A stretch of 64,000 bases of DNA from Escherichia phage PJNS034, in sequence record PP391266.1, one strand, 5' to 3'. Shown in pieces: positions 5,313-61,311 of this stretch (its first letter is position 1; each line of letters begins with the position of its first letter). The notes under the pieces were generated by a model. That model searched no databases. It saw only the letters and a list, made by a program, of their open reading frames with translations, and was not told where the DNA came from. The position numbers and the translations under genes are program-made.

Positions 5313-5438
5313 ATTCTTCCTGAAACTGGTTAAGATTTTCAACATGATGGTTGATATCTTTGTCCTGTATGTTCTGCTGTTTGGTCATATGTCAGCGAAC
5401 ATCGGTGGTAAACTTTACGAATTTAATGGACTGTTCCT

Positions 5439-5762: not shown

Positions 5763-5805
5763 TACTCTAGGGCTTCCCGTTAGGGGAGAGTAAGAAATAA
5801 TATAA

Positions 5806-5831
5806 GGAATATTAGTAAGATATAATATTCC
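5806..5831 (+). promoter_or_regulatory. perfect 9-bp palindrome GGAATATTA-N8-TAATATTCC containing TATAAT
   Basis: Hairpin/operator-like element 25 nt upstream of ORF 5856 and the tRNA cluster; shares GGAATATTAsTAAGA with element at 47265. Confidence 0.4.
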
Positions 5832-5855
5832 TTAATATTACTCCTGAGGTGACTC

Positions 5856-6050
5856 ATGCTTGACTCAAAATGTTCACTATGCGGTTGCACTGGTATTCAT
5901 GCCTGTATGGGCAAGCCTTTAAGTGATGGTGTTATCTATTCAACTTACGGTAACACCGAAGTTAGAAAGTTAGCCGCGAAAGAGATTCAAGAAATCCAAG
6001 AATTATTGGAAAAGATTGTTGACACACAACCCAATAACTTGGTATCTTAA
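5856..6050 (+). CDS. hypothetical Cys-rich small protein
   Basis: 64 aa; RBS TGAGGTGA; CSLCGC...HAC. Confidence 0.35.
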   Translation: MLDSKCSLCGCTGIHACMGKPLSDGVIYSTYGNTEVRKLAAKEIQEIQELLEKIVDTQPNNLVS

Positions 6051-6137
6051 ATACATGGGGTGAGCAATCACCTCTTCCAGAAGTAGTTGGTGTCCACTGT
6101 CCCACAAGGGCTGAAACGGAACAGAACTTCTGGGTAT

Positions 6138-6215
6138 CTTGATGTAGCTCAGTTTGGTAGCAGCACTTGCTTTGGGAGCAAGGGGTCGAAGGTTCGAATC
6201 CTTCCATCAAGACCA
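6138..6215 (+). tRNA. tRNA-Pro (anticodon TGG)
   Basis: Manual cloverleaf: 7-bp acceptor CTTGATG/CATCAAG, anticodon arm CTTGC-TTTGGGA-GCAAG, T-arm GAAGG-TTCGAAT-CCTTC, 3' CCA. Confidence 0.7.
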
Positions 6216-6216
6216 A

Positions 6217-6298
6217 GTGGGATTGGCTGAGTGGTCGAAAGCACCTGACTGTAAATCAGGCATATCACGCGGTGGTTCGAATCCATCATCCCACACCA
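6217..6298 (+). tRNA. tRNA-Tyr (anticodon GTA)
   Basis: Acceptor GTGGGAT/ATCCCAC, anticodon arm CCTGA-CTGTAAA-TCAGG, long variable arm, TTCGAAT T-loop, CCA. Confidence 0.7.
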
Positions 6299-6300
6299 AA

Positions 6301-6377
6301 GCGTCACTAACTCAATTGGTTAGAGTAGCGGTCTTTTAAACCGCAGGTTCTGAGTTCGAGTCTCAGGTGGCGTACCA
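6301..6377 (+). tRNA. tRNA-Lys (anticodon TTT)
   Basis: Anticodon arm GCGGT-CTTTTAA-ACCGC, T-arm CTGAG-TTCGAGT-CTCAG, CCA. Confidence 0.7.
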
Positions 6378-6379
6378 AA

Positions 6380-6469
6380 GGAAGTTAGGGCTTTGTGGAA
6401 AGCAATCGGTCTTGAAAACCGACCCACTGTAGCGATATGGTGATGGTTCGACTCCATTAGCTTCCTCCA
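6380..6469 (+). tRNA. tRNA-Ser (anticodon TGA)
   Basis: Anticodon arm TCGGT-CTTGAAA-ACCGA, long variable arm, TTCGACT T-loop, CCA. Confidence 0.65.
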
Positions 6470-6471
6470 AT

Positions 6472-6548
6472 TGTTTCGTAGCTCAGTTGGTAAGAGCGTT
6501 CGGCTGATAACCGAAAGGTCACAAGTTCGAGTCTTGTCGAAACAACCA
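6472..6548 (+). tRNA. tRNA-Ile (anticodon GAT)
   Basis: Canonical cloverleaf: TGTTTCG/CGAAACA acceptor, GCTC-AGTTGGTAA-GAGC D-arm, TTCGG-CTGATAA-CCGAA, TTCGAGT T-loop, CCA. Confidence 0.8.
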
Positions 6549-6551
6549 AAT

Positions 6552-6640
6552 GACGGGTTGGCAGAGTTGGTTTATTGCAGCAGCTTGCTAAGTTGCCGAG
6601 TCGAAAGGCTCCGTGGGTTCGAATCCCACACCCGACGCCA
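6552..6640 (+). tRNA. tRNA-Ser (anticodon GCT)
   Basis: Anticodon arm GCAGC-TTGCTAA-GTTGC, long variable arm, GTGGG-TTCGAAT-CCCAC, CCA; one acceptor mismatch. Confidence 0.55.
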
Positions 6641-6641
6641 A

Positions 6642-6717
6642 GGACGATAAGCACATGTGGATGTGCGGCAGGCTGTTAACCTGATGGCAGTTGGTTCGAA
6701 TCCAACATCGTCCGCCA
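6642..6717 (+). tRNA. tRNA-Asn (anticodon GTT)
   Basis: Acceptor GGACGAT/ATCGTCC, loop CTGTTAA, T-arm GTTGG-TTCGAAT-CCAAC, CCA. Confidence 0.6.
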
Positions 6718-6719
6718 AT

Positions 6720-6794
6720 AGCGAGATAGTTCAGTGGTAGAATATCGGTTTCATACGCCGACCGTCGATGGTTCGATTCCATCTCTCGCTACCA
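6720..6794 (+). tRNA. tRNA-Met (anticodon CAT; elongator, initiator or lysidine-Ile not distinguishable)
   Basis: Acceptor AGCGAGA/TCTCGCT, anticodon arm TCGGT-TTCATAC-GCCGA, T-arm GATGG-TTCGATT-CCATC, CCA. Confidence 0.65.
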
Positions 6795-6810
6795 AACCTC
6801 TTTATCCGAT

Positions 6811-6882
6811 GGGAGTGTCCTTCTGGGAAGGATGTGGATTCCAACCCCACTAAGTAGAGTTCGATTCTTTACACTCCCGCCA
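6811..6882 (+). tRNA. tRNA, anticodon TCC (Gly) or alternatively CCA (Trp) depending on stem register
   Basis: Acceptor GGGAGTG/CACTCCC, loop region GGATTCCAACCCC, T-arm TAGAG-TTCGATT-CTTTA, CCA. Confidence 0.5.
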
Positions 6883-6889
6883 AATCCCT

Positions 6890-6966
6890 AGCCTTGTAGT
6901 GTAGTCTGGTTAGCACACGTGACTTTGACTCACGGAGCTTAGGTTCGAATCCTGACAGGGCTGCCA
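6890..6966 (+). tRNA. tRNA-Gln (anticodon TTG)
   Basis: Acceptor AGCCTTG/CAGGGCT, anticodon arm CGTGA-CTTTGAC-TCACG, T-arm TTAGG-TTCGAAT-CCTGA, CCA. Confidence 0.7.
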
Positions 6967-6982
6967 ATAAGAGGTAATATCA

Positions 6983-7273
6983 ATGTCTGTTCGTTGTTGG
7001 AATGCCGCTGGAAAGCTGGTAGCAGATGTTGGTGACTACAATGTCCGATACTTAGGACGTCAGACGATTACTTACCCTGCGAAAGCTGCTTCAGCAAGAG
7101 GCAACTTAGCGGGGTTAACTGCATCTGGCTCCTTTGGAGTCATTGTGGGAGCCAGTCAAGGTGCCTTTAATGATTATGTAGTAAAGGCAGTTAACGGTGG
7201 GTATGAAGTTCTGGCTAACAGGACAATCTACCAAAATACGACACTTACAGTGGATTTATATAGCTTCGTATGA
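6983..7273 (+). CDS. hypothetical protein
   Basis: 96 aa ORF starting 17 nt after tRNA cluster. Confidence 0.35.
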   Translation: MSVRCWNAAGKLVADVGDYNVRYLGRQTITYPAKAASARGNLAGLTASGSFGVIVGASQGAFNDYVVKAVNGGYEVLANRTIYQNTTLTVDLYSFV

Positions 7274-7935
7274 GTACCATTCAACTTCGTAATTCAGCAG
7301 GTGCGATAACGGTAGACTCAGATAACAAGGCTGCCCACTACCGTGACCACGTAGCCATGACCACTATTACTGACCGAGGGTATTATGTTTTACCCAATAA
7401 GTTAGGTGGTACTGGTGATATGGGTTATCCTGCAAGGAATCAGCAATTTAAAGCTGATGATAACCTTCAATGGTTCCGATTCAATAACAATGCCAAAGCA
7501 ATGTTCTGCATCAACCAATACCTTGGTGGTGGCTTAGTTACACAGAATGCTGGAGTGATGGCTCGTACACACTTCAACCTTCCGGTAGCTAAAGGCTATA
7601 TCAACATCTGGAATGCTCAAGGTCAGTTGATTTGGTCAGATGCTCAGGCAGCGAAGATTCCACGTATTGTGGGCTTCTTCACAATTCCTCCAAACTTTGA
7701 CTTAGACAACAACGTGTACTCCCAAAACATTGGTCTGGACAAGTTCATTCTTGCCAGTATGTGTCCGGGTGAAATCAGTGATGATGGTACAGTAGCAGGT
7801 TGGTCAGGCTTGTTCTTTCGAATGGTAAATGGAACGCTGCAAGTGCAGTGGCTCAACAAATACCAGAAAACATGGGCGCAAACTTTTAAGGCAACAGGGA
7901 TGAAAATCCCATATGCAATTTTTCCAAACTTATAG
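7270..7935 (+). CDS. hypothetical protein
   Basis: 221 aa ORF, ATG overlapping upstream stop. Confidence 0.4.
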   Translation: MSTIQLRNSAGAITVDSDNKAAHYRDHVAMTTITDRGYYVLPNKLGGTGDMGYPARNQQFKADDNLQWFRFNNNAKAMFCINQYLGGGLVTQNAGVMARTHFNLPVAKGYINIWNAQGQLIWSDAQAAKIPRIVGFFTIPPNFDLDNNVYSQNIGLDKFILASMCPGEISDDGTVAGWSGLFFRMVNGTLQVQWLNKYQKTWAQTFKATGMKIPYAIFPNL

Positions 7936-8136
7936 TTGACGCCAAAGGTTCAATTTAGTATATTGAACTTAACAGAGATGTGTTCCCTGTTACGGCATTG
8001 CGTTCGTCATCACAGCACATCCTTCAACAAATTACCTTGGGACTTAGCCTCTACGCTTCTTCGGAACTAGAGGCTTTTCTTCCCTCATGAGGTTGTCCAA
8101 GCGACAACAAAACAATCGACAAAGTGAGTATACATA

Positions 8137-8916
8137 ATGGCTAAGATTCCTTCTTCTCGTTCCGCTAAAGTTTCCAAAGTTCAGTACGAAGCAACCAAAC
8201 CGGGTCTGTACCCTGCACGTCTGGTTCGTTTCACCGGTCTGGGCACTCAGCCTCAGCCAGAGTTCCAAGGTCAGGCTAAAGACCCTGCACCGAAAGTAGC
8301 TGTAATGTTTGAGTTGTATGACCCGCAGACAGCGAAACCTCTGGATGTTATCGGTGTGAACATCGAAACGGAAGAGAAGGTGGCACGTCCTTCTTGTGTG
8401 TTCCAAGACTACTTCCTGTTCCCAGGCGCTACTCGTGGTAAAGTCTTCGAGTTGACTCAGGCTCTGGATGCAAGCATGGAAAAAGTTCCAGATGATTTCG
8501 AATGGTTCCTGTCTCGTCTCGGTGCTCCAGTTCAGGTTCAGGTAGGCAACTACAAGAAGAAAGATGGTTCTGTTGGTGTTAAAGTTGTTTCCGTAACAGG
8601 TGTCAACTCTTTCGTTTCCAACGCAATGGAACCTGCTCGTTCTGAACTGGTTGGCTTTGACCCATACGATGATAACGTTGAGAAGTTCGAACGTGCTTAT
8701 GCTCAGATGTTCCCATTCCAGCGTACCATGCTGAAAGATGCACTGGATGCGAAACACATTCCTCTGGCTGGTACTGAACCAGTTAAGATTGACGATAACC
8801 CAGCTAACACTGAAAACCGTCAGACTTCCAAGCCGGAAACTACTGTGACGCAAACTGGTTCTGCTCCAAGCGAACCGACTGGTAATTGGGAAGATGACGA
8901 CGACCGTCCTTTCTAA
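8137..8916 (+). CDS. single-stranded DNA-binding protein-like (acidic C-terminal tip)
   Basis: 259 aa; C-terminus WEDDDDRPF resembles the acidic DDD-IPF / terminal-Phe tail of SSB and T7 gp2.5; strong RBS. Confidence 0.5.
   Translation: MAKIPSSRSAKVSKVQYEATKPGLYPARLVRFTGLGTQPQPEFQGQAKDPAPKVAVMFELYDPQTAKPLDVIGVNIETEEKVARPSCVFQDYFLFPGATRGKVFELTQALDASMEKVPDDFEWFLSRLGAPVQVQVGNYKKKDGSVGVKVVSVTGVNSFVSNAMEPARSELVGFDPYDDNVEKFERAYAQMFPFQRTMLKDALDAKHIPLAGTEPVKIDDNPANTENRQTSKPETTVTQTGSAPSEPTGNWEDDDDRPF
8839..8850 (+). repeat. 12-mer ACTACTGTGACG, copy 3
   Basis: Exact, codons 235-238 of SSB-like gene. Confidence 0.9.
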
Positions 8917-8927
8917 TTAAATAATAA

Positions 8928-8952
8928 CCTCGCCTTCGGGCGGGGTTTCTTT
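8928..8952 (+). terminator. rho-independent terminator (UUCG tetraloop)
   Basis: CCTCGCC-TTCG-GGCGGGG then TTTCTTT, just after SSB stop. Confidence 0.6.
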
Positions 8953-8974
8953 GTCCCTAAATTCGAGGTAATAC

Positions 8975-9172
8975 ATGGCTGCTAAGCTGACAATTAAACG
9001 TACTGAAAAAGATAACTTCCACATTCGCTTTGGTAACTTCGAAACTTACCTGACCTTTGTTGAACTGAGCGAAATCAGTGAACAAATTCGTGAAGTGGTA
9101 AGTGATGAAGAGTCTCGTCTGCTACAGGCAGAACTGAGCGGTTCTCTGGTTTGTGATGGTTGCACTATTTAA
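8975..9172 (+). CDS. hypothetical protein
   Basis: 65 aa ORF with RBS. Confidence 0.35.
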   Translation: MAAKLTIKRTEKDNFHIRFGNFETYLTFVELSEISEQIREVVSDEESRLLQAELSGSLVCDGCTI

Positions 9173-12047: not shown

Positions 12048-12267
12048 CAGTATATTAACTAAGGTCACTTCGGTGGCCTTTTCTTTCATCTAACTATAGG
12101 CAAAACAATGAAACAGGCTGTATTTGATTTCGCTTCTCGCATGGTCGATAAGCTGACTGCTGATTATGACAAAGCAGAAACCTCTGACGTTGCAGAACGC
12201 ATCATGTCAGAACTCAAAAACTACATCAAAATGCGTGATGATGCACAACGTTCTCTGGAGAAAGCTA

Positions 12268-12807
12268 ATGCGTAAGGTTTATATTGCAGGTCATATGTTA
12301 ACTCGTGGTGCTCAGATGCAACGTGCTGAGGAACGTGAGCTGGTATCTTCTTTGGGTCATCAACTCTACAACCCAATGGACAACAAGGAAATTAACGACA
12401 AGAAGCTCCACAAGGACGATACAGGGCTGGCTGAACGAATCGTTAAGCAAGACACCGACGCTATTTTCTGGGCTGATACAGTGCTGATTGAGCCGCTTGC
12501 TGAGGCAAATGGCACTCTGGTTGAGTTAGGACAGATTAAAGGTATGAAAGACCTCGCCAAGAAGCTGATGGAGTTACCTGCAACAAATGAGATTGAGTTC
12601 GCTGACCAAGCAATTGAATTGCTCAAACGAATCCTAGACCAGAAGGTTGTTGCTCACTTCGAAGATATCCGACGTGTCGAAGGTATCACCGAAACAGGCG
12701 ACCGTCGCTCTCTTGGCATTAACCAGTATGTATATGGTACTGTCCTTGACCTGACAGATGGCAAAGGCTTCACTGAGTTTAAAGACTTGCCGGAGGCTCT
12801 TGCTTGA
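12268..12807 (+). CDS. nucleoside 2-deoxyribosyltransferase / Rcl-like N-glycosidase family protein
   Basis: N-terminal VYIAGHM and C-terminal NGTLVELG match the NDT-family Rossmann and catalytic-Glu motifs; ATG 12268 with GGAG RBS. Confidence 0.55.
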   Translation: MRKVYIAGHMLTRGAQMQRAEERELVSSLGHQLYNPMDNKEINDKKLHKDDTGLAERIVKQDTDAIFWADTVLIEPLAEANGTLVELGQIKGMKDLAKKLMELPATNEIEFADQAIELLKRILDQKVVAHFEDIRRVEGITETGDRRSLGINQYVYGTVLDLTDGKGFTEFKDLPEALA

Positions 12808-13466
12808 ACTGGAGATTAATATGGTCAGTCTTTGCCGTGCTATCCATTCTGTTTGGGTGCGTTGTTTCAAAAGCAAGTTACGAAGTAATGGCGACGTCCC
12901 TAGTGGGCGTCATGTTCGTGATAGGGGTAGCCTTCAAGAAAGCAAGTGCGAATCTTTTGGGGGCTATACTGTGCGCTATGCTTGGGTTGATGAGCTGGCA
13001 AGCTGGATACTACATGAACGCGATTATCAACATCTTCTTATTGCTACCACTCCAGTTATTAGCTTACGCCAATTGGACGACAGGGGTGTCGAAGCGAGAG
13101 CATCACAGGTACTTGGTGGAAACGGTCTGTCGCAAACGATTCTTGATTTACACATGTTGGCTAATTCCTCTCTTGGTAGCCGCATACTTCTCAGGCAGCC
13201 GTTTGTGGGTACACGATGCTGTGACAGCCTCACTTGTGATTGTCGCAACACTTCTCCTCATGTTCAATACCAAAGAGCAATGGCAATTCTGGATTCCATA
13301 CAATCTGGTAGAAGTCTTCATGTGGTTCATCGCAGCGAGTACAGCCCCTGAAATGCTTGCAATTATGTTCATGCGTATTGTATTCTTCATTAACAGTCTG
13401 ATTGGCTATTACGAATGGAGGAACGATGGCAATCCACGGACGCTACTTTCGACAGAAACCCGCTGA
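12804..13466 (+). CDS. PnuC-like (nicotinamide riboside/nucleoside transporter family) membrane protein
   Basis: 220 aa, multiple TM segments, AYANW...KREHH region resembles PnuC signature; start codon uncertain (TTG 12804 or downstream ATG). Confidence 0.4.
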   Translation: MNWRLIWSVFAVLSILFGCVVSKASYEVMATSLVGVMFVIGVAFKKASANLLGAILCAMLGLMSWQAGYYMNAIINIFLLLPLQLLAYANWTTGVSKREHHRYLVETVCRKRFLIYTCWLIPLLVAAYFSGSRLWVHDAVTASLVIVATLLLMFNTKEQWQFWIPYNLVEVFMWFIAASTAPEMLAIMFMRIVFFINSLIGYYEWRNDGNPRTLLSTETR

Positions 13467-42463: not shown

Positions 42464-42919
42464 TTAGTTACTTTCTGGAACAGCAACAGTCAGCTTAATA
42501 CCAGCCAACTTGTCTGCAATCATCTTGTCCAGCTCTTCAGCAGTCAGTTCTTCATCATTCTTAATGTCCACTTCAACAGAAGCAGCTTTAGGATAGACGA
42601 TATCGACCAGCTTCATAGCAGCCATCAGACGCTCTTTAGGAGTAGCTGTGGGGCTTTCCATCACATCAATGAGGTATTCATCAGGGCGAATACGAGCGTT
42701 TGCTATAGCGTCTAACATTTGCTGTGTGAGCTTGTTACGGGAGCCTTTCTTACGACCGCGACCAAAATTATTGCCGGGTAAGAAGGTGTTTTTGACAAGA
42801 TTTCGACCTTTCGAGCAGGGATGGCCTTCTTCACTGAAAAATTCAATGGTTTTGCCTTTATACTCGTCTCCTACGCTGAGATGAGAGTAATCATCCACAT
42901 AAGTCTTTTCATTAGACAT
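42464..42919 (-). CDS. putative terminase small subunit
   Basis: 151 aa, basic GRGRKKGSRNK region, first gene of late arm. Confidence 0.4.
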   Translation of the reverse strand: MSNEKTYVDDYSHLSVGDEYKGKTIEFFSEEGHPCSKGRNLVKNTFLPGNNFGRGRKKGSRNKLTQQMLDAIANARIRPDEYLIDVMESPTATPKERLMAAMKLVDIVYPKAASVEVDIKNDEELTAEELDKMIADKLAGIKLTVAVPESN

Positions 42920-42920
42920 T

Positions 42921-43048
42921 CATGCCACCTAATAATGGGGTTAGTTGAAAGATACACTGTAAGATGGAACCATTCATGCCAGTTCATCTACATGCCATGT
43001 CATAAGTATACACTGATAAGAGGCTATCATGCCACCTCATACATGCCA
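42921..43048. repeat. five direct repeats of CATGCCA (minus strand TGGCATG) upstream of terS
   Basis: Copies at 42921, 42975, 42991, 43028, 43042 with similar flanks. Confidence 0.55.
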
Positions 43049-43103
43049 GTCCATACTTCTGTGGGGATATAGGTAAGAGATGCTACATCTTACACTACTT
43101 ATA

Positions 43104-43905: not shown

Positions 43906-44086
43906 GCTTACCGATTCAAACGCTCTTTAAAAATGTGGTCTGTCTTTAGGTGGTGTTTAACATCATTACTACAAGGCGCTTAGTTAGTTATCTGGTTTTG
44001 ATTCCTGTTTCATTAGTGATTCAGGCGGATTGATAAAGCATCTTCAATAAGTCTTTAACAGTTCGATACTTCGAAGAAATTAACGA

Positions 44087-44114
44087 TTGACAGCGTACTA
44101 GATTCCTGTAAGAT
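44087..44114 (+). promoter_or_regulatory. sigma70-like promoter candidate
   Basis: TTGACA, 16 nt spacer, TAAGAT. Confidence 0.4.
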
Positions 44115-44232
44115 AGACCACGTTTTAACGCTCTTTAACAATATGAATCATTAACGCTTAAACGTTAGTTTAATCAGACGTTATCAAGTGAAGCTGAAAA
44201 GTAACACGATAACAAATGATGAAAATAAACGG

Positions 44233-44260
44233 TTGACAGCGTGAAATGATTCGGTATAAT
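44233..44260 (+). promoter_or_regulatory. strong sigma70-like early promoter
   Basis: Consensus TTGACA, 16 nt spacer, consensus TATAAT, about 480 nt upstream of first early gene. Confidence 0.6.
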
Positions 44261-44741
44261 GAGCGCCATCGAATGACAGAACGTTGTCAGACGATAGCCG
44301 GATAAGTGGATAACTTATAACGGCAGTTCGATAAAGTAGTGTGGTAGCGGGTAGCGGTATGTAACACGGATAATCTACGGATTAACGGCTTATTTGTTGC
44401 TTGCTTAAAGCATAAAACGTCGGGCGGCACGATGGGAGAAGTGCATAAAATCAATTAGGCTCCCTGACTCTTTAACAATTAGGAAACTACGCACCACAAT
44501 TAACGTTGGATAACGTAAAGAGTGGGTTAATTTAGGGTGATTCCCTGCGTAGGCTTGTCGAGCTGATAACAGCGGTATGTGATGGACGCTTATATACTCC
44601 CTCCATGATAGTGTATGACTGATTCCACCTAGGCCAAAGTGAAAGGGCGATAACGAATAGCAAGTAACAATCTCGTTTGATATGGGCATTTAATAGTGAG
44701 TGTCCAGATTAAACGATAAAACTGAATTGAGGATTAAACCT

Positions 44742-45348: not shown

Positions 45349-45387
45349 AGCCCCTTGCATTGAATAAATGTGAGGGGCTTTTTGTTT
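45349..45387 (+). terminator. rho-independent terminator
   Basis: AGCCCCT-N17-AGGGGCT followed by TTTTTGTTT. Confidence 0.55.
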
Positions 45388-45718: not shown

Positions 45719-45979
45719 ATGGCTGCGGGATATTTAGGCGGTGATTGTGTACACGGTGAGATTCAAGCCGTTGTAGATAACGCCGTTGACTTTGCCCGTT
45801 CTCAATTGAATTGTGGCGAGTCAGAAATGTTTTGTCTTGAATGTGATGAAGAAATCCCACAAGCAAGGCGTGAGGTTGCGAAAGGCTGCAAGTATTGTAT
45901 TACCTGCCAGTCTAAGCACGATAGAAAACAAGCCAGCCAATTCAACAGGCGAGGCAGTAAAGATAGTCAATTGAGGTAA
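45719..45979 (+). CDS. TraR/DksA-family C4 zinc-finger protein
   Basis: CLEC-x17-CITC spacing matches TraR/DksA C-x2-C-x17-C-x2-C finger. Confidence 0.5.
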   Translation: MAAGYLGGDCVHGEIQAVVDNAVDFARSQLNCGESEMFCLECDEEIPQARREVAKGCKYCITCQSKHDRKQASQFNRRGSKDSQLR

Positions 45980-45983
45980 TAGA

Positions 45984-46565
45984 ATGAGTCAGTGGTCTGA
46001 GTTTTACAAAGGGCGTCTAGGTGGACGCTATCAAGCCCACGTTTTAAAGCAGTATGCCCCATTCATCAATCGAATCATTCAGGCTGGGCGTGGTATCAGT
46101 TCGCCAGTGGTTAACTTCCGTGAGGAGGGCGCTGGTATTGGTACGGTTACGGCTATCCTGCAACAATATGCTGAGTCTCGCTTTGACTTAGACAACTGGA
46201 AGTTTGAAATGGTTGACCGTTGCCCTGAAATGGCTGAGTTAGCTTTTCAAAATACCGGTGTACGCTGTGAGATATTCGATATCCTTAAACGGCGTGAAAT
46301 GCTGGATTCTTTACGGCCTCACATTATCCATTCTCATGGTGTACTTGAACACTTCGAGGACGATGATATACGGGCAATCATTGACAATCAGCGTACACTT
46401 GCAAAGTCTTGTGTAATTGCATACGTTCCCACTAACGGCTATGAAAAGCCTAGCTTCGGTGATGAACGGCTCTTAGATGTGAAACATTGGGTCAAAGAGT
46501 TTAGACCTACAGATGTTCACGCTTTCAACAATGGCTGCGACCTGATGCTTTACTGGCGGGCGTAG
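45984..46565 (+). CDS. putative SAM-dependent methyltransferase
   Basis: 193 aa; FREEGAGIG resembles class-I MTase motif I, acidic FEMVD motif II; substrate unknown. Confidence 0.35.
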   Translation: MSQWSEFYKGRLGGRYQAHVLKQYAPFINRIIQAGRGISSPVVNFREEGAGIGTVTAILQQYAESRFDLDNWKFEMVDRCPEMAELAFQNTGVRCEIFDILKRREMLDSLRPHIIHSHGVLEHFEDDDIRAIIDNQRTLAKSCVIAYVPTNGYEKPSFGDERLLDVKHWVKEFRPTDVHAFNNGCDLMLYWRA

Positions 46566-46568
46566 TTT

Positions 46569-46580
46569 ACTACTGTGACG
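46569..46580 (+). repeat. 12-mer ACTACTGTGACG, copy 5
   Basis: Exact, 3 nt after stop of methyltransferase-like gene. Confidence 0.9.
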
Positions 46581-46688
46581 GGTGGCTCTTATGGTCGAGT
46601 ATGGTGAAGAAGATTTTGTTAAGGCGGCTAATCGCTTCTGGCTTTGGGTCGCTATCGTTGGGACTGTAATTATCTGGGCGGTGTGCTG

Positions 46689-46886
46689 ATGGAAGTATTA
46701 ACAATGTTCGCTGTGTTCGTCATAGAGCTTCTCTGGGTGCATCCTATGGCATTCTTCGCAGACTTAGGTGCTGCGGGTCACTTTGGCTGGTCTTTGGCCT
46801 TCCTGATGGTGTACGGGCTGTTTATCGCTACGTTGCCATACAATATCCTCAAGCTATTCATTAAACGTAAGGAAATCCCTGCATGA
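46689..46886 (+). CDS. small membrane protein
   Basis: About 65 aa, two hydrophobic helices; start uncertain. Confidence 0.35.
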   Translation: MEVLTMFAVFVIELLWVHPMAFFADLGAAGHFGWSLAFLMVYGLFIATLPYNILKLFIKRKEIPA

Positions 46887-54360: not shown

Positions 54361-55170
54361 ATGACGATTCGCCTGATTACTCTTGGTGCTGACCCTGAAA
54401 CTATTGTTGCTCGCAACGGTGTTCCAACTCACGCTATTGGTCTTATCGGCGGTACTAAGGAAGAACCACGTAAGATTATCCGTGGTGGTCGTGAAGTTGG
54501 TGCGGTGCAGGAAGATAATGTCCTGTATGAGTTCAACATCATGCCACACGATACTCGTCAGGGATTCATTGACAACATTCAGCAGATGTTGGAAGTGGGT
54601 CGTGAGATTCTGGGTGATGGTTACGAAATCACTAATAAGACTTCTCACATCTTCTCTGATGAAGACATGGCTCATTTCCCTGACTCAGCGTTTATCTTCG
54701 GTTGTGAACCGGATTTCTTCGCTGGTAATGGTGAGATGAATCCGAAGCCTGCTGCACCGTGGCCGGGTCTGCGTACCGCAGGTGGTCATGTTCACTTCGG
54801 GTTCGATGAGCGTGTAGTTCGTGATGATGAGAATGTTCGTTCTCTGATTCAACTGTGCGATATGTATATGGCGTTGCCGTCAATGCTTCTGGACACTGAC
54901 GACCTGCGTAAAGAACTGTATGGTAAGGCCGGTGCATTCCGTCCGAAAGCATATGGTGCTGAATATCGTACACTGTCAGGTTTCTGGATTCATAATCCTG
55001 AAAATACTGGCTTCGTGTTTGACCAAGCGCAGAAAGCGTATGATGCGTTGGCAACTGGTCTGGGTCGTGAGATGTTGGCACGTTTCCCATACGAACTGGT
55101 TGTCGATATCATCAACAGCAATGACCGTGGACGTGCTGAACGTGCCCTGAAAGTTATGCAGGTTGCATAA
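54361..55170 (+). CDS. amidoligase-like (GCS2/carboxylate-amine ligase-like) protein, divergent paralog
   Basis: 269 aa; GGHVHFGFD (H-x-H) and GAEYRTLSGFW (E-x-R) as in GCS2-type ligases; N-terminal E-x-E replaced by D-P-E. Confidence 0.4.
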   Translation: MTIRLITLGADPETIVARNGVPTHAIGLIGGTKEEPRKIIRGGREVGAVQEDNVLYEFNIMPHDTRQGFIDNIQQMLEVGREILGDGYEITNKTSHIFSDEDMAHFPDSAFIFGCEPDFFAGNGEMNPKPAAPWPGLRTAGGHVHFGFDERVVRDDENVRSLIQLCDMYMALPSMLLDTDDLRKELYGKAGAFRPKAYGAEYRTLSGFWIHNPENTGFVFDQAQKAYDALATGLGREMLARFPYELVVDIINSNDRGRAERALKVMQVA

Positions 55171-55352
55171 TGGAAGAAGGTCTGCTGATTAGCTGGGTTG
55201 AATCTCCAGCGAACCGTAAGACCAAGACTCATACCCTCTTCTTCGAAAGCCTGGACGAGGGTTATGAGTTCATGGCCTCTAAAAGTTGTGTAATTCAAGT
55301 ACAACGCATTCCACTGGTGAGAAAGAATGGCGAAACTGGTAACGGTAAATAA
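55170..55352 (+). CDS. hypothetical small protein
   Basis: 60 aa, ATG overlapping upstream stop. Confidence 0.3.
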   Translation: MEEGLLISWVESPANRKTKTHTLFFESLDEGYEFMASKSCVIQVQRIPLVRKNGETGNGK

Positions 55353-55518
55353 CGCAGATAAAACTGTAACTCGTCGTGTCTTTATGGACAACGAAGAGGG
55401 TATCATGTGGGCAGTTGACCAAGCCCGCACAGCACTGTCAGTCGTGACTGATGATGTGGAAGTGGTCGAGGCTTCCAGCCGTAAAGGTTGGGAAGGTCAT
55501 ATCGCATGTGATTGCTAA
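55327..55518 (+). CDS. hypothetical small protein
   Basis: 63 aa ORF. Confidence 0.3.
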   Translation: MAKLVTVNNADKTVTRRVFMDNEEGIMWAVDQARTALSVVTDDVEVVEASSRKGWEGHIACDC

Positions 55519-55542
55519 TTTAAACTGAACGAGAGAACTAAA

Positions 55543-56151
55543 ATGTCAATCAATATGTCAAGTGGTGATTTACGTCTGTATTGGGGTGGGTGTTATGCAC
55601 CTGTTGCATGGGATGCAGCAGATAGTGGCGTAGCAACACTGGTAATTCACGACGTTCGTGTGATAAATCCAATGTCACGTGACTACACCGAAGCACGAGT
55701 TCAAGGTGAACTATTCTTCATTCGTAATGGAGAAGAGGCTCGTGGTAATTTTGAAGGTCGTATGTCTGACCTCCTCGGTGATGGGTTCACCACTCCTCAA
55801 CGCAATATCGGTTATATCCGTGTTCACGGTCAACCGTATTGGATTACCTTCAAACGTCGTCGTACAAATCGTAAAGGCATCACCAATGACCGTCTGGCTG
55901 TGTATGTAGCTGGGCATCGTGGTGAAGCAGGTTTGAACTTCGGTAGTGATGTGTTGTGTCGTCTGTATGCAACCTTTGATGGTCGTATCTCTGATGATTT
56001 CTGTATTCATCAGAACATGATTCATTATAAAGGTGTGGTTGTCGGACGTTATGAGCGTCACAATCGTATTGTATTAGCTGAACGTTTTGCGTATCTTAGC
56101 TGGTCGCTGGAACGTATCGGTGGTTACGACGTAACGGTGGAGGTTGAGTAA
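55543..56151 (+). CDS. hypothetical protein
   Basis: 202 aa; RBS GAGAGAA. Confidence 0.4.
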   Translation: MSINMSSGDLRLYWGGCYAPVAWDAADSGVATLVIHDVRVINPMSRDYTEARVQGELFFIRNGEEARGNFEGRMSDLLGDGFTTPQRNIGYIRVHGQPYWITFKRRRTNRKGITNDRLAVYVAGHRGEAGLNFGSDVLCRLYATFDGRISDDFCIHQNMIHYKGVVVGRYERHNRIVLAERFAYLSWSLERIGGYDVTVEVE

Positions 56152-56975
56152 TGATTATTGCTGACATTTTAGGGCATGGTCGTGGGTCGGATGTTGTTGA
56201 TACGCATCCGTTGATTGTTGGTCGAGGCCGTGTAGGACTCGAATTAGAACTGGAGAATATGCCAAATGCTCGACAAGCTGCTGGTTGGACAGTTACTGGT
56301 GACGGTTCTCTGCGTAATAGCGGCGTGGAATATGTACTCCGTGGTGCTCAGGGAGGTATGGAGTTATTTAATTCGATACTTTCTCTGGAAGAAGCACTCA
56401 TGGCACATCAATGTGATGCTAACCTTCGCTGCTCTACTCACGTTCACCTTGATATACGTCGGCTCACTGTGGCTCAACTCAAGCGTTTACTTCTGGCTTA
56501 TACAGTCTTTGAGCCATTAATCTTTGAGTTGTCCGGTGCGCATCGTCGTACTAACAACTTCTGTCCGTCGTTTAGTTTCGCTCAGCAACAAATTCGTAAG
56601 CTGAGTAACAACTGGCATCATGATGGTGAACGATTCCTTGCTCGTATTGTGGAAGGTCGTGACCGCCAATCCAGTGATAAGTATTCAGCACTGAATCTGG
56701 TTCCAATCTTCACTCAGGGTTCTGTAGAGTTCCGTGGTGCAGAAGCGAAGCCAAGTGCAGGTAAGATGATTCGTCTGGCTAACCGTATTCTAAGTCTGTA
56801 TGACTTAGCGGTTAACTCTGATATGAATCAGTCTGATGCTGAGTTCATTAACTCACTGGCGAACCTTGATGTTCAACAGGCATTGATGGGTACGATTCCT
56901 CGTGACTTCGAACTCAGCGAAGAACTGGTGAATGAAGGACGTGTCTTAGCGTTCGATATTATCTCTCTGGGGTGA
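56151..56975 (+). CDS. amidoligase (GCS2-like carboxylate-amine ligase)
   Basis: 274 aa; VGLELELE (E-x-E), CSTHVHLD (H-x-H), GSVEFRGAE (E-x-R): the three signature blocks of gamma-glutamyl-cysteine-synthetase-2-like amidoligases. Confidence 0.55.
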   Translation: MIIADILGHGRGSDVVDTHPLIVGRGRVGLELELENMPNARQAAGWTVTGDGSLRNSGVEYVLRGAQGGMELFNSILSLEEALMAHQCDANLRCSTHVHLDIRRLTVAQLKRLLLAYTVFEPLIFELSGAHRRTNNFCPSFSFAQQQIRKLSNNWHHDGERFLARIVEGRDRQSSDKYSALNLVPIFTQGSVEFRGAEAKPSAGKMIRLANRILSLYDLAVNSDMNQSDAEFINSLANLDVQQALMGTIPRDFELSEELVNEGRVLAFDIISLG

Positions 56976-56976
56976 C

Positions 56977-57192
56977 ATGAGCTGGAACGAACGAGAGTAT
57001 CGTAAACCAAAGTTGGGCACTGTATGTGTCCACTTCGAACCTTCGTATAAGTCAACCTTTGGAAGTACGAAGAAGTTCCCTAACGCATCGTTCTACTTGA
57101 GTACGAACGGTGTAATCATCATCCGTGATATGGATGGTGACAACATCTGTGCATACCCTGAAGGTGTGTGGCTGAATGTTGAAATGAAGTGA
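56977..57192 (+). CDS. hypothetical small protein
   Basis: 71 aa ORF. Confidence 0.3.
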   Translation: MSWNEREYRKPKLGTVCVHFEPSYKSTFGSTKKFPNASFYLSTNGVIIIRDMDGDNICAYPEGVWLNVEMK

Positions 57193-57202
57193 TTAACTCA
57201 AG

Positions 57203-57224
57203 CCCTTCTTCGGGAGGGTTTTAT
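57203..57224 (+). terminator. terminator/attenuator hairpin in conserved cassette (UUCG loop)
   Basis: stop-TTAACTCAAG, CCCTTC-TTCG-GGAGGG, TTTTATGG. Confidence 0.5.
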
Positions 57225-57278
57225 GGTAATCATTACCACAAACTATTGAAACTAACTATTGAACTTGAGGAAAGTATT

Positions 57279-58871
57279 ATGTGCGGAATCGTTGGAATTA
57301 TGCGTGGCGTTATGACTGAAGGTATGGTGGACATGTTTGAACAACTGCTGTATGCAGATGTGTTCCGTGGCCCGCACTCCACTGGCGTCTATCGTGTTAA
57401 TAAAGATGGTCAATCAGGGTTGTATAAGGATGCAGTACCTGCGTCTTTATATCTTGGCTCGAAAGGCTGGGATGATTTACGTGGGAATCTGAATGGAACT
57501 GCTGGTCATCAGGCACTGTCTCAAGTTTATGTTGGTCATAACCGTTGGGCAACTGTAGGTGCAGTTAACGCTGTGAACTCACATCCATTCAAGTGCGGTA
57601 ACATCACGATGGTACACAATGGTACTGTTGCGAAGTGGCGTTTGAATGACCACCTGAAGTATGACGTTGATAGTCATGCGGTGTGTGCGATGTTGGATTC
57701 ACATGGTCTGGCTGAAACTCTGAAAGTTCTGGATGGTAAGTTTACTCTGGTGTGGCATGACGCATCTGATAACACCATGAACTTTATCCGTAATGCAGAA
57801 CGTCCTCTGCACATGGTTGAGTTCACTGATGGTGGTTGGGCGTTTGCATCAGAAGGTGAGATGTTAACGTGGATTAATGGTCGTCGTAAGACCCCGTTTG
57901 GTATTAAACGTGCTTTCGAACTGCCAGTTGGCTTCCATCATAAATTCCAGTTATCCGCGAGCAAAGTAGAGCTTGCGGAGGTCGTTAAGTACGAACTCCC
58001 AAAGTTCACCAGCTACGCCAGCAACAGCACGTATTATCCAAACCGAAGCTCAGTCGCAAGCAGCAGCGCAAGCTCAACAAACTCAGAAAGCGCAACCGCT
58101 AGACGTGTGCGTCTGATGAAAGAGTGGGGCATTGACGTTGGAGACCGCAAAGATGTAGAGAACATGATTGTGTCTCTGGATAACATCGCGTTCACAGCGT
58201 ACTCAACCAATGCAGCATCAGGTCGTATTGATGCAGACGCATGGGGTTACGATGAAGCTGTTGATGCCTGTGATGCTGGTCATATGGAAATTGACTGTAA
58301 GCGTGGTGGTAAAACTGAAGATGTTCAGGTAACAGTTTACGGTGTTGATACTGTTAAGTGGAAAGACAACTACTCTCAGGGCGACCGTCTGTACGGTAAG
58401 ATTGACAGTGTGTTTGAATCCACTGAGCATGGCAAGACTCGTCTTCGTATCACTTTGAAACCACTGACTCTGTGTACTGAGTTGGCTGATGGCGTTGAAG
58501 CCTTTAATGAGAAAGTGTTCCCGCTCCTCATTAAGAAAGAGGCCGAAAAGGTTGATGCCGACAAAAGTAAATCAGATGTTGCAGGAAGCACTGGAAGCGC
58601 AGGAACTGCAACTGGTCAGGGAACTCAGTTATCGGTTGTAGTGGATAACACTGCAAAAAAGCCGGAAGGTACGGACTCATCAAGCGGCTCGCCGAACTTG
58701 TTCAACATGTCCGCAATTCCAATGAGTCTTAAAGACTTGCGTGAAGACAAGCTGAGTTGTGCTTGGTGCGGAAATGCAATCCACGAACATAACTACGAAA
58801 TGTCTGATATGTTCTTTAAATCTCACATCTGCCCAGATTGTGCCAAGGAGTTACCGGGTTATGGCGACTGA
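57279..58871 (+). CDS. class-II glutamine amidotransferase (Ntn hydrolase) domain protein with C-terminal extension and Zn-ribbon
   Basis: N-terminal Met-Cys-Gly-Ile-Val-Gly (catalytic Cys after Met removal), Ser-rich linker, C-terminal CAWCG...CPDC. Confidence 0.55.
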   Translation: MCGIVGIMRGVMTEGMVDMFEQLLYADVFRGPHSTGVYRVNKDGQSGLYKDAVPASLYLGSKGWDDLRGNLNGTAGHQALSQVYVGHNRWATVGAVNAVNSHPFKCGNITMVHNGTVAKWRLNDHLKYDVDSHAVCAMLDSHGLAETLKVLDGKFTLVWHDASDNTMNFIRNAERPLHMVEFTDGGWAFASEGEMLTWINGRRKTPFGIKRAFELPVGFHHKFQLSASKVELAEVVKYELPKFTSYASNSTYYPNRSSVASSSASSTNSESATARRVRLMKEWGIDVGDRKDVENMIVSLDNIAFTAYSTNAASGRIDADAWGYDEAVDACDAGHMEIDCKRGGKTEDVQVTVYGVDTVKWKDNYSQGDRLYGKIDSVFESTEHGKTRLRITLKPLTLCTELADGVEAFNEKVFPLLIKKEAEKVDADKSKSDVAGSTGSAGTATGQGTQLSVVVDNTAKKPEGTDSSSGSPNLFNMSAIPMSLKDLREDKLSCAWCGNAIHEHNYEMSDMFFKSHICPDCAKELPGYGD

Positions 58872-59154
58872 TAAAATTGTAATTCGTATGCCGAAAGACG
58901 ACATTGAATGTGAGCGGAAATATCCGTTCACTTACTTCATGAATGCAGCGCTGCGTGGTATGCAGCGTCGCTACTCTGAACAAGCGTCGGCAAAGTTTGG
59001 TAGTGAAGTTGAGATTCTATTCCCAACTGCATTATCAAAAATGATTCATGACCACATGGTCACTCTGTATCAACAGGAAGGATTCGAACTCGCTGAAGAA
59101 GATTTCGAAGACTCCGAACAATACCGCAAATATCTGAAACTAATTAAGGGCTAA
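58861..59154 (+). CDS. hypothetical protein
   Basis: 97 aa from ATG overlapping upstream stop. Confidence 0.35.
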   Translation: MATDKIVIRMPKDDIECERKYPFTYFMNAALRGMQRRYSEQASAKFGSEVEILFPTALSKMIHDHMVTLYQQEGFELAEEDFEDSEQYRKYLKLIKG

Positions 59155-59159
59155 AACAA

Positions 59160-60653
59160 ATGCTGCGTATCTTCAACTACAACAACGGTTCTCAAGGTCT
59201 GGGTGCTCTGCGTGAACATGTAGAGCCATTGATTCGTGAGATGAATACTCATCGTGGTTTCCGTAACATTCGTCCGGTTATGGGTAGCGAGAATGGTTCT
59301 GCTCGTCTGTTTCAGGCGACTAACCGCTTCATTATGAACTGGGGTTCTTCGCAACCCCTGAACACTGATGAAAGCAACTTCGTTCTCAACAAACCGGAAG
59401 CTGTTGGTTTAGCAACTCATAAACTCCGCTTCTTCCAACATGTTCACCAGTGGAACCAAGAGAAGATTGCTCAGGGTGTGAATGGCCTGACTGTTCCGAT
59501 TCCTGAGTGGACAACTTCTCGTGATGAAGCTCAGACTTGGGCAGGGCATGACCATCTGGTTTATGCCCGTCAACGTCTGCAAGGTCATAGCGGTGAAGGT
59601 ATCGAAGTATACGGTATCAATCAGGTTGTTGAACGTGCTCCACTGTACACCAAAGGCATCATCGGTGCTCGTCGTGAGTATCGTGTTCATGTCATTGCTG
59701 GTCAGGTGGCACTGGTTCAGTTGAAGAAACGCCGCAATGGTGGTGAGGCTGTGGGCAATGGTAATGACCATGTTCGTAACCTCGGCTCTGGTTGGGTGTA
59801 TGCAGTAAGTGATGCTCGTCCATCACCAGTCGTATTGAGTGCAGCACAGAATGCAGTTCGTGCTCTGGGTCTGGACTTTGGTGCGGTAGACATTATCGCT
59901 AAAGGTCGTAAAGGTCAGGAGCGTGAGTGCTGGGTGTTGGAAGTTAACACTGCACCGGGTCAGCGTGGTGATACTACTGTGACGCTGTATGCTCGTGCTG
60001 TTGCATCGGCATATGCAATCTGGATGAATCGTGATAGCGTTGACGTCCGTGATTTAGGAGGTGTCAAAGCTGCATGGGAAACACTTCCTTGGCTGAACGA
60101 TGAAACCTTCCTTGCTCTGATGCGTGATGAAGGTGCAGATGGTTCGGTACTTCTGCGTTCTCAGCGTGAAACTCAGGCAGCAGAGGCAGAAATGCCTAAC
60201 ACTGACGATGATGTGGCGGCAGATGAAAACTTTGCCCTTCCTGCTGATGAACTGACACCTGCTCGTGCAACCTCTGGTGCTCATGTAGTTCACACTGGTA
60301 CTCGTTGGGTTGATGTAGAAGCAGCACCTCAAGTTCGTGCTGAGCCTGTACGTCGTCGTGACGGTGAGCCAATGCCGTTCAATGGTAATCCATTCGATGC
60401 ACGTATTCGTCGTGAACCTGCACCACGTCCTGCACCTGAACCGGTTGTAATGCCAGAACGTCGTGTCATGTTGTCTCGTCTGGGACAGAATGACCCACAG
60501 AACGAACAGTTCGTGGTATTCACATGGAACGGTCGTCGTGAAGTCGGTGTAGTCAATACTCGTCTGGGTGTTGTTTACATGGCTGGTAGCGAAGTTCAAC
60601 TTCCACTGGCTCAGGTTGATTTGATTGCGGTAGTTGATACCGAAATTCGTTAA
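59160..60653 (+). CDS. ATP-grasp family ligase (RimK-like) with C-terminal extension
   Basis: 497 aa; GEGIEVY, EYRVHVIAG, LGLDFGAVDII, WVLEVNTAPG (E-x-N) ATP-grasp blocks; about 200-aa extension. Confidence 0.5.
   Translation: MLRIFNYNNGSQGLGALREHVEPLIREMNTHRGFRNIRPVMGSENGSARLFQATNRFIMNWGSSQPLNTDESNFVLNKPEAVGLATHKLRFFQHVHQWNQEKIAQGVNGLTVPIPEWTTSRDEAQTWAGHDHLVYARQRLQGHSGEGIEVYGINQVVERAPLYTKGIIGARREYRVHVIAGQVALVQLKKRRNGGEAVGNGNDHVRNLGSGWVYAVSDARPSPVVLSAAQNAVRALGLDFGAVDIIAKGRKGQERECWVLEVNTAPGQRGDTTVTLYARAVASAYAIWMNRDSVDVRDLGGVKAAWETLPWLNDETFLALMRDEGADGSVLLRSQRETQAAEAEMPNTDDDVAADENFALPADELTPARATSGAHVVHTGTRWVDVEAAPQVRAEPVRRRDGEPMPFNGNPFDARIRREPAPRPAPEPVVMPERRVMLSRLGQNDPQNEQFVVFTWNGRREVGVVNTRLGVVYMAGSEVQLPLAQVDLIAVVDTEIR
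59973..59984 (+). repeat. 12-mer ACTACTGTGACG, copy 8
   Basis: Exact, codons 272-275 of ATP-grasp gene. Confidence 0.9.
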
Positions 60654-60682
60654 TTGCTTTAGGGTATTCTTCGGAGTACCCT

Positions 60683-60904
60683 ATGTCGATTGAACCGAAC
60701 GAGGAATATATGAAAGTATGGGTAGTTATGTTCCAAGAGTATGACCTAGCCGAAGTGCTGGAAATCTACTCGAAGGAAGAAGATGCTATAGCACATCGTC
60801 AGGCTGAAATTGATAAGAGCTTGTCATACGCTAAGAAGTGGAATGTCAAACCACACCCTGCGCTCGAACAGTTTTATACAATTCACGAAAAAGAGGTAAA
60901 GTAA
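60683..60904 (+). CDS. hypothetical small protein
   Basis: 73 aa ORF. Confidence 0.3.
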   Translation: MSIEPNEEYMKVWVVMFQEYDLAEVLEIYSKEEDAIAHRQAEIDKSLSYAKKWNVKPHPALEQFYTIHEKEVK

Positions 60905-61311
60905 TGAGCAATTTAGTCGCTGTATATGGTTCCCTTCTGTCTGGTCTGCATAACCACGGTGTTATGGAACGTGCAAAGGGTAAGTTGATTGGTGCTGGTG
61001 AATCGGTGCAGAACATCAACATGTATTCTCTGGGTGGTTTCCCTTCCATCTCTCTGGAACACTCCAGCCACGGTAATACAATTCGTGTTGAAGTATATGA
61101 AGTACCGGATGAAGGTATGCGTCCTCTGAATGCACTGGAAGGTTATCGTGGTGAAGATGGCCCGAACTTCTACAACCGCACTCCAATCAAAATTAAGATG
61201 GACAACGGTGATATGCTGGAAGCGTTCATCTATCACATCGACGAAACTCAATCCCATCCGGTTATTGATGGTGACTGGCGTAAATATCTGGAACAGCGAG
61301 GTCGTGCATAG
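60904..61311 (+). CDS. gamma-glutamyl cyclotransferase (AIG2/GGCT-like)
   Basis: 135 aa from ATG 60904; N-terminal VAVYGSLLSG (YGSL motif) and size typical of AIG2-like cyclotransferases. Confidence 0.5.
   Translation: MSNLVAVYGSLLSGLHNHGVMERAKGKLIGAGESVQNINMYSLGGFPSISLEHSSHGNTIRVEVYEVPDEGMRPLNALEGYRGEDGPNFYNRTPIKIKMDNGDMLEAFIYHIDETQSHPVIDGDWRKYLEQRGRA

Follow-up and report, generated by a model that had tools for sequence, protein, structure and literature searches.

Background and Overview

TraR-like proteins provide the best-understood way for mobile elements to impose stringent-like transcription without guanosine tetraphosphate (ppGpp). The functional features of TraR homologs are the DxxDxA tip, the R48/R49 pair, which is tied to the rim-helix and beta-prime Si3 contacts, and the C-terminal helix (Gourse laboratory; PMC9239242). 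The YbiI subtype of these zinc-finger proteins is found in approximately 600 virulent phage genomes and on many bacterial chromosomes, yet it lacks the motif thought to be essential for TraR. Proteins of this subtype bear on the question of whether regulation via the RNA polymerase (RNAP) secondary channel tolerates a different tip or whether their activity is distinct. Here, we analyze such a zinc-finger gene, and the methyltransferase gene that follows it, in Escherichia phage PJNS034 (sequence record PP391266.1). The analyzed stretch of 64,000 nucleotides (hereafter, the window) is closely related to Pantoea phage TacPo2, to which it has 81 per cent nucleotide identity across 44.6–47.3 kb. 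In the TacPo2 counterpart of this region, all genes are annotated as hypothetical.

The best explanation of the locus as a whole, to which we assign a probability of roughly 0.55, is that a YbiI-type zinc finger and an S-adenosylmethionine (SAM)-dependent methyltransferase are encoded by two independent accessory genes of a TacPo2-like virulent phage. These genes would lie in the early arm of its genome, transcribed by host RNAP. The two open reading frames (ORFs) have exactly the coordinates, the + strand location, and the lengths of 86 and 193 amino acids (aa) given in the initial annotation (Table 1). Taken together, the finding is a correct and fairly ordinary annotation with one testable lead.

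A Zinc-Finger Protein of the YbiI Subtype

The zinc-finger protein is 93 per cent identical to its TacPo2 counterpart, with a ratio of nonsynonymous to synonymous substitution rates (dN/dS) of 0.07, and its gene is a real coding gene under purifying selection. The translation contains the cysteine pattern C39-x2-C42-x17-C60-x2-C63, which had been recognized at the outset as a TraR/DksA finger. The pattern is not due to chance, because three hidden Markov model collections return matches to the protein: the Pfam family zf-dskA_traR (PF01258; 31.4 bits versus a gathering threshold of 24.9), the PHROG family 'DksA-like zinc-finger protein' (phrog_54; E = 8e-19), and the NCBIfam equivalog for YbiI (NF008243; 100.1 bits versus a cutoff of 96, covering residues 1–86 of 86). 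Judged by its sequence, the protein is a C4 finger of the DksA/TraR family and of the YbiI subtype.

In a comparison of 122 relatives, both bacterial and phage proteins, the invariant or nearly invariant positions are the M-A-x-G-[WFY] N-terminus, the four cysteines, I46-P47, R50-R51, and the last eleven residues. Specifically, all 122 sequences have G4 and an aromatic residue at position 5, an acidic residue occupies position 8 or 9 in every one of them, and the two arginines are conserved in 122 (R50) and 117 (R51) sequences. Within the C-terminal NRRGSKDSQLR (residues 76–86; nucleotides 45944–45976), N76–Q84 and R86 are present in 122/122 relatives and L85 in 116/122. An AlphaFold2 (AF2) model of moderate confidence (predicted local distance difference test [pLDDT] of 72) consists of a helix at residues 8–28, a zinc ribbon, a second helix at residues 61–75, and a floppy tail.

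The closest described protein, E. coli YbiI (PDB 2KGO; 88 aa), aligns with the phage protein from end to end (E = 1.4e-17) and shares with it the C4 finger, the IPQARRE segment, and an identical NRRGSKDSQLR C-terminus. The two proteins differ at the N-terminal tip, which reads LGGDCV in the phage protein and ANDDAV in E. coli YbiI, and in their setting, as YbiI (NF008243/PRK11019) is encoded on a bacterial chromosome, whereas the phage protein belongs to an early gene block of a virulent phage. F-plasmid TraR, in contrast, aligns with the phage protein through the finger region only (E = 1.5e-4). TraR and lambda Orf73 (PDB 5W1S and 6N57) have in common with it the Pfam family, the C4 finger, the arginine pair, and the succession of N-terminal helix, zinc ribbon, and C-terminal helix; all three proteins are borne by mobile elements and placed early. 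R50/R51 in IPQARRE align with R48/R49 in the IPEARRK segment of TraR, and D9 is the counterpart of TraR D6 (30 versus 31 residues before the first cysteine), whereas the other tip residues differ. The phage protein also has three more residues at its N-terminus, as well as the 11-residue invariant tail that is missing from TraR.

TraR-like binding at the RNAP secondary channel is the likeliest mechanism of the zinc finger, and the balance tilts slightly toward it. The protein would dock on the rim of the secondary channel of host RNAP via its conserved Arg-Arg pair and its zinc domain. Because G-[WFY]-x2-3-[DE] stands in place of the DxxDxA tip and the invariant NRRGSKDSQLR tail is an addition, it may affect RNAP differently from TraR. 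The retention of the arginine pair and of the helix/zinc-ribbon/helix layout, and the acidic residue at the helix tip of all relatives, are consistent with such docking. Overexpressed YbiI reportedly rescues the auxotrophy of a dksA deletion mutant ('data not shown'; PMC2613031), which was the only paper found in a literature search on YbiI function. The presence of the subtype in so many virulent phages, together with its early position in the two genomes that were examined, also fits host takeover.

Several observations weigh against TraR-like binding and point to a different, less probable explanation, in which the YbiI-subtype finger is not a secondary-channel regulator, its tail and G-[WFY] N-terminus serve another target, and its likeness to TraR is one of fold alone. 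The DxxDxA motif is absent from the first 14 residues of all 122 relatives. This tip is needed for the activity of TraR, lambda Orf73, and VP882 TraR (PMC9239242; bioRxiv 10.64898/2026.07.27.740977); the VP882 study showed an NxxNxA variant to be inactive (bioRxiv 10.64898/2026.07.27.740977), and relatives of intermediate length in which DxxDxA is missing along with other DksA features do not show DksA-like behavior (PMC9239242). The phage protein also falls far short of the curated equivalog cutoffs for TraR (23 versus 108 bits) and DksA (20 versus 105 bits). Moreover, the eleven conserved C-terminal residues are foreign to TraR, and Blankschien et al. deemed iron metabolism the likelier role for YbiI (PMC2613031). 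The reprogramming of host RNAP put forward in the initial annotation is thus still plausible with respect to the arginine pair and the layout, but the YbiI subtype, the lack of DxxDxA, and the additional tail make it a weaker proposal than was implied. A mode of action distinct from that of TraR, on RNAP or on a different target, is conceivable for YbiI-type fingers, whose tail is invariant and whose tip is non-canonical.

A DxxDxA-like string at residues 21–26 of the family consensus was considered and found to be illusory: it is present in 3 of the 122 sequences, falls in the middle of a helix, and reads NAVDFA in the phage protein.

The finger gene is common and ordinary among phages. A tblastn search returned 648 phage records with the gene, of which 596 had near-full-length matches; the records include T4-like Klebsiella phages, jumbo phages of Erwinia, Yersinia, and Serratia, Proteus phage Privateer (approximately 90 kb) and similar phages, and GAP52/Crifsvirus phages. 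The last group carries the closest relatives (66 per cent identity), and in the one member that was examined, Escherichia phage ECO319P1, the finger lies near the genome end among early genes.

A Phage-Restricted Class I Methyltransferase

The second gene is likewise a real coding gene under purifying selection, as the methyltransferase and its TacPo2 counterpart are 91 per cent identical with a dN/dS of 0.14. Its class I motif I, initially read as EEGAGIG, indeed occupies residues 47–53 and aligns with motif I (E/D-x-G-x-G-x-G) of a family of homologs. Across 177 members of this family, E47 is conserved in 171, G49 in 175, G51 in 177, and D78 in 174. All cofactor motifs are intact (E47-x-G-x-G-x-G; D78, which is the acidic SAM-ribose residue at the end of beta-2; and D99). 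Y24, G51, H118, H123, G159, L163, and W169 are invariant, and E122, P149, S157, D160, and E161 are conserved in 97–99 per cent of the members. HSHGVLEH and PSFGDERL are unique and invariant signatures of the family.

The assignment is based on the family and on the predicted fold, because the protein's own Pfam matches are below threshold (the best, to Methyltransf_23, has 15.6 bits versus 27; E = 0.013). Among the 33 nearest family members, 27 match Methyltransf_12/25. A direct search of the single sequence against PDB returned nothing meaningful (E > 0.5), whereas the family profile matched solved SAM methyltransferases (E = 3e-8). Structure prediction, which the initial annotation had named as a test, yielded a methyltransferase fold: the AF2 model has a pLDDT of 95.1 and a predicted template modeling score of 0.91, and a Foldseek search with it (E = 4e-10) recovered the Rossmann-like seven-stranded fold. 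A fold search of viral proteins in BFVD returned generic methyltransferases only. The 193-aa protein thus appears, from its sequence and model, to be a minimal and active-looking class I SAM-dependent methyltransferase.

By standard fold topology, HSHGVLEH (after beta-4) and the PSFGDERL loop (after beta-5) would line the acceptor pocket, whose residues are predicted to be the family-specific and invariant W4, Y8, R11, Y16, Y24, H118, E122, H123, and S157-F-G-D-E161. Identity to solved class I methyltransferases of the Methyltransf_11/12/25 type (RPA2492, 3E23; cg3271, 3H2B; CysG/BelI, 9FCE; MM_2633, 3DTN) is 9–18 per cent and, unlike enzymes of this type, the phage protein lacks a lid and a substrate domain. 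Neither the N-terminal W/Y/R/Y/Y set nor the PSFGDERL loop is matched in PDB.

The family comprises 261 clusters (at 50 per cent identity and E <= 1e-30), nearly all of 170–200 aa, and is larger than a word-based search had suggested. It was found at 84 IMG/VR loci and in 13 isolate phage records: that of TacPo2, eight from Aeromonas phages (of which the one examined is a chasevirus), and those of T7-like phages of Aeromonas and Escherichia. Among 185,579 species genomes, a scan gave eight loci, all in metagenome-assembled genomes. The family is essentially phage restricted and has no characterized member; cluster look-ups yielded no informative names, and the longer members have no recognizable fused domain. 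It is sizeable, and its active site is sharply conserved.

The Methyl Acceptor

The fold neighbors of the methyltransferase are mixed: they include carboxyl O-methyltransferases (CysG/BelI), N- and C-methyltransferases, and the RNA enzymes METTL6, CmoA, Bud23, and Hen1. They do not discriminate among acceptors, and genomic context is the only directional signal. We grouped 89 methyltransferase loci into 35 lineages at 60 per cent identity. Clustering of the neighborhoods at the blastp level revealed no partner in more than 3 of the 35 lineages, and the methyltransferase gene therefore moves on its own. At the level of protein families, RlaP, a nucleotidyltransferase associated with RNA ligase, is encoded 0–2.1 kb from the methyltransferase in 4 of the 35 lineages. 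The gene order at one locus is SpoU methylase, methyltransferase, RlaP, one further gene, and RtcB; at another, it is methyltransferase, one further gene, Pnkp, RlaP, and T4-type RNA ligase 1 (Rnl1). In other lineages, a T4-like Pnkp, an RNA ligase, Ro60/TROVE, or a class I transfer RNA (tRNA)-synthetase catalytic-domain protein is encoded within approximately 3.5–5 kb. In total, RNA-repair or tRNA genes (RlaP, RtcB, Rnl1, Pnkp, and Ro60) are near the methyltransferase in at least seven lineages. In a Pfam census of 241 neighboring ORFs, RlaP and DNA ligase tie as the most recurrent annotated family, and Thg1 and a CCA-adding-type enzyme are also present. RlaP is rare in IMG/VR (approximately 290 pattern-detected loci in 2.9 million contigs), and its occurrence near 3 of 80 methyltransferase loci exceeds random expectation by orders of magnitude, a rough figure, as the search patterns were derived from the same sequences. 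The RNA-repair neighborhood is a lead rather than proof.

From this context we infer, tentatively, that RNA is the single most likely acceptor class, with either tRNA, from phage or host, or a repaired RNA end as the substrate. Its methylation would shield the translation apparatus from host ribotoxins. A more specific proposition, which we hold only loosely, is that the HSHGVLEH/PSFGDERL family consists of phage-specific RNA modifiers that methylate tRNA or the repaired anticodon-loop junction and so block host anticodon nucleases, each acting as a stand-alone analog of Hen1 with or without RNA ligase, RlaP, and Pnkp modules. Such an RNA-protective enzyme would be a new counter-measure in the tRNA-nuclease arms race. 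The window itself carries ten tRNA genes (ten detected by ARAGORN and nine by Rfam, which found only tRNAs in the window; Table 1). Several of these tRNA types are classic targets of anticodon nucleases.

Other results weigh against an RNA acceptor. The nearest solved folds are mostly those of small-molecule methyltransferases. No RNA-repair gene was found in the window, nor near the methyltransferase in approximately 80 per cent of the lineages, and in the reverse test the 80 best RlaP loci all lacked the methyltransferase. With a median isoelectric point of 6.3, the family is mildly acidic, which is unusual for RNA binders that stand alone. When the C-terminal half, which contains PSFGDERL, was searched as a profile, no sequence relative was found in PDB, Hen1 included. 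Hen1, the RNA 3'-terminal 2'-O-methyltransferase of the bacterial Pnkp-Hen1 repair system (3JWG/3JWI; plant HEN1, 3HTX), is a weak match of the full family profile (E = 0.014), in which E122-H123 probably lie over the E-H of Hen1. However, the first glutamate of the Hen1 E-x2-E-H metal site (plant E796/E799/H800/H860) corresponds to G119, D160-E161 are only a candidate for the distal ligand, and the phage protein has no Pnkp-binding domain. We therefore do not claim homology to Hen1, which serves as a working analogy.

A small-molecule acceptor is possible, although on balance unlikely. The enzyme would then act on a host metabolite or a nucleotide-derived immune signal by metal-assisted O-methylation of a carboxylate, phosphate, or diol, thereby altering host metabolism or blunting a defense signal; if true, this activity would likewise be new. 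The PDB matches of the profile are led by phosphoethanolamine N-methyltransferases and similar enzymes. CysG/BelI has a His-His-Asp metal site after beta-4 and an N-terminal arginine (PMC11408123), and the invariant H118, E122, H123, D160, E161, and R11 of the phage family, which occupy comparable positions, suggest a putative metal site. The acidic isoelectric point of the family and the small size of the protein, which has no extra binding domain, also suit a small substrate. Yet LEH after beta-4 is a generic motif of Methyltransf_11-type enzymes, for example UbiG, no conserved metabolic partner gene was found in the 35 lineages, and RNA repair is the sole recurrent functional theme among the neighbors.

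Methylation of a host or phage protein, such as part of RNAP or of the translation apparatus, is improbable. The class I fold includes protein methyltransferases, NRMT2 is among the weak matches, as are the Pfam families of PCMT and lysine methyltransferases, and the gene would be expressed early beside a putative RNAP binder. However, the protein has no specific similarity to any protein methyltransferase family and no conserved partner gene, and its pairing with the finger is clade specific. Least credible of all is the methylation of phage DNA for restriction evasion. Phages often carry orphan DNA methylases, and a C5 DNA methylase is encoded nearby on the contig of one homolog, but the 193-aa sequence lacks (D/N/S)PP(Y/F/W), any PP dipeptide, PC, and ENV, leaves no room for a target-recognition domain, and has Pfam matches that are all of the Methyltransf_11/12/23/25/31 type, with none to N6_N4_Mtase or DNA_methylase. 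The nucleic acid or protein methylation suggested in the initial annotation is thus narrowed, with DNA unlikely and with RNA and protein as candidates beside a small molecule.

Two phage contigs carry further genes of note near methyltransferase homologs. Positions 3572–9045 of a 62.8-kb contig (L009) are a dense counter-defense and RNA-repair block, in which an Acb2/Tad1-hairpin protein, a protein like the C-terminal domain of the RNAP alpha subunit, a zinc-finger DUF3268 protein, a SpoU methylase, the methyltransferase homolog, RlaP, and RtcB are encoded in one run. On a 58-kb contig (L024), positions 4941–6503 encode a Ro60/TROVE plus von Willebrand factor A protein, 3.5 kb upstream of the methyltransferase homolog and next to a DNA ligase.

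Relationship Between the Two Genes

The adjacency of finger and methyltransferase is confined to the TacPo2 clade, and in the 34 other lineages no TraR/DksA finger was found within 10 kb of the methyltransferase. The two genes also differ greatly in occurrence, with the finger present in 648 phage records and the methyltransferase in 13. Because the adjacency is limited to one clade and hundreds of phages have the finger without the methyltransferase, the pair should not be read as a functional unit. That they nonetheless work as one, with the finger, for example, targeting the methyltransferase to RNAP, is very improbable, although the genes are 4 nucleotides (nt) apart and both conserved in TacPo2, and although VP882 TraR acts in complex with the product of a neighboring gene (bioRxiv 10.64898/2026.07.27.740977). 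By analogy with the QisA-TraR pair of VP882, we speculate that the product of the very basic 106-aa ORF upstream may be a better partner candidate for the finger than the methyltransferase is. This ORF is probably co-translated with the zinc-finger gene, as its stop is 1 nt before the zinc-finger start.

Layout of the Early Arm

The genes for portal, terminase, and tail proteins lie on the − strand at approximately 14 to 43 kb. A non-coding stretch of approximately 1.8 kb separates the divergent arms, and the + strand genes start beyond it (Table 1). Two repeated sigma-70-type units in this stretch are predicted from their sequence to act as early promoters: a promoter scan gave 12/12 at 44233–44260 (a perfect TTGACA-16-TATAAT) and 10/12 at the sister unit (44087–44114). 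The 20-nt promoter unit (AAATTAACGATTGACAGCGT) is present in three copies in 44077–44516, and four iteron-like CAT(T/A)CATGCCA repeats with a spacing of approximately 53 bp are located at 42917–43054, also in the inter-arm region.

The finger had initially been placed right after the first early gene. Instead, it is the third gene on the + strand, with the 106-aa ORF and a terminator-like hairpin intervening. Escherichia phage ECO319P1 has a gene of similar size to the first early gene early in its genome, a likeness of size and position alone. No ORF of the size of an RNA polymerase was found on the + strand, where the longest encodes 561 aa, and the ten largest among the scanned ORFs, all but one on the − strand, encode DNA polymerase, exonuclease, tail, portal, and terminase proteins. 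The phage presumably relies on host RNAP throughout, because the + strand has no ORF of the required size.

Table 1. Features of the early arm and related elements of the window.
Feature	Position	Strand	Basis and remarks
Two repeated sigma-70-type units, putative early promoters	44077–44260	+	AAATTAACGATTGACAGCGT-type -35 boxes at 44077 and 44223; direct repeat family D2
First + strand (early) gene, 207 aa	44700–45323	+	phrog_1448 (E = 3e-31); coding sequence (CDS) annotated at corresponding TacPo2 place
Terminator-like hairpin, 13-bp stem followed by T run	45349–45379	+	Terminator scan; between gene 1 and three-gene block
Very basic ORF, 106 aa	45397–45717	+	ORF list; CDS annotated at same TacPo2 place; weak PHROG matches
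YbiI-type DksA/TraR-family C4 zinc-finger gene (assigned by sequence), 86 aa	45719–45979	+	ATG start; GCGGGG Shine-Dalgarno-like sequence upstream
Predicted class I SAM-dependent methyltransferase gene, 193 aa	45984–46565	+	ATG start; GAGG Shine-Dalgarno-like sequence upstream; 4-nt gap after zinc finger
TACTACTGTGAC 12-mer copy, intergenic	46568–46579	+	Just upstream of 35-aa hydrophobic ORF (46582–46689)
TACTACTGTGAC copies, start positions	22, 5030, 8838, 13848, 46568, 48480, 50639, 59972	+	
tRNA genes	6138–6966		Pro-UGG, Tyr, Lys-UUU, Ser-UGA, Ile, Ser-GCU, Asn, Met/Ile-CAT, Trp, Gln-UUG

A Repeated 12-mer and Other Features of the Window

The copy of the 12-mer TACTACTGTGAC that had been noticed just past the gene pair starts two bases after the stop of the methyltransferase gene and is the fifth of eight. 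All eight copies (six exact and two with one mismatch) are on the + strand, compared to 0.47 expected by chance. Apart from this intergenic copy, at least six others are inside different ORFs and in one reading frame (xxT ACT ACT GTG ACx, which translates as T-T-V-T), in two cases within the first ten codons. Because so many copies share a frame within ORFs, the repeat is not simply an intergenic promoter or terminator and resembles a DNA- or RNA-level signal carried within coding sequence.

Three other regions of the window are also of note. A cluster at 54361–61311 encodes a COOH-NH2 ligase, an amidoligase, a glutamine amidotransferase (GlmS-like), an ATP-grasp RimK-like ligase, and a gamma-glutamyl cyclotransferase, and resembles predicted phage systems for peptide or metabolite tagging. 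At 12166–13466, a nucleoside 2-deoxyribosyltransferase-like protein is followed by a PnuC-type nicotinamide mononucleotide transporter, a pair that suggests salvage of nicotinamide adenine dinucleotide or nucleosides by the phage. Finally, the DNA polymerase ORF at 2476–4161 matches only positions 836–1233 of the phrog_17 profile, and a 219-aa ORF lies on the opposite strand (1383–2042). The N-terminal part of this polymerase must be encoded separately upstream, and the polymerase gene may be split or interrupted.

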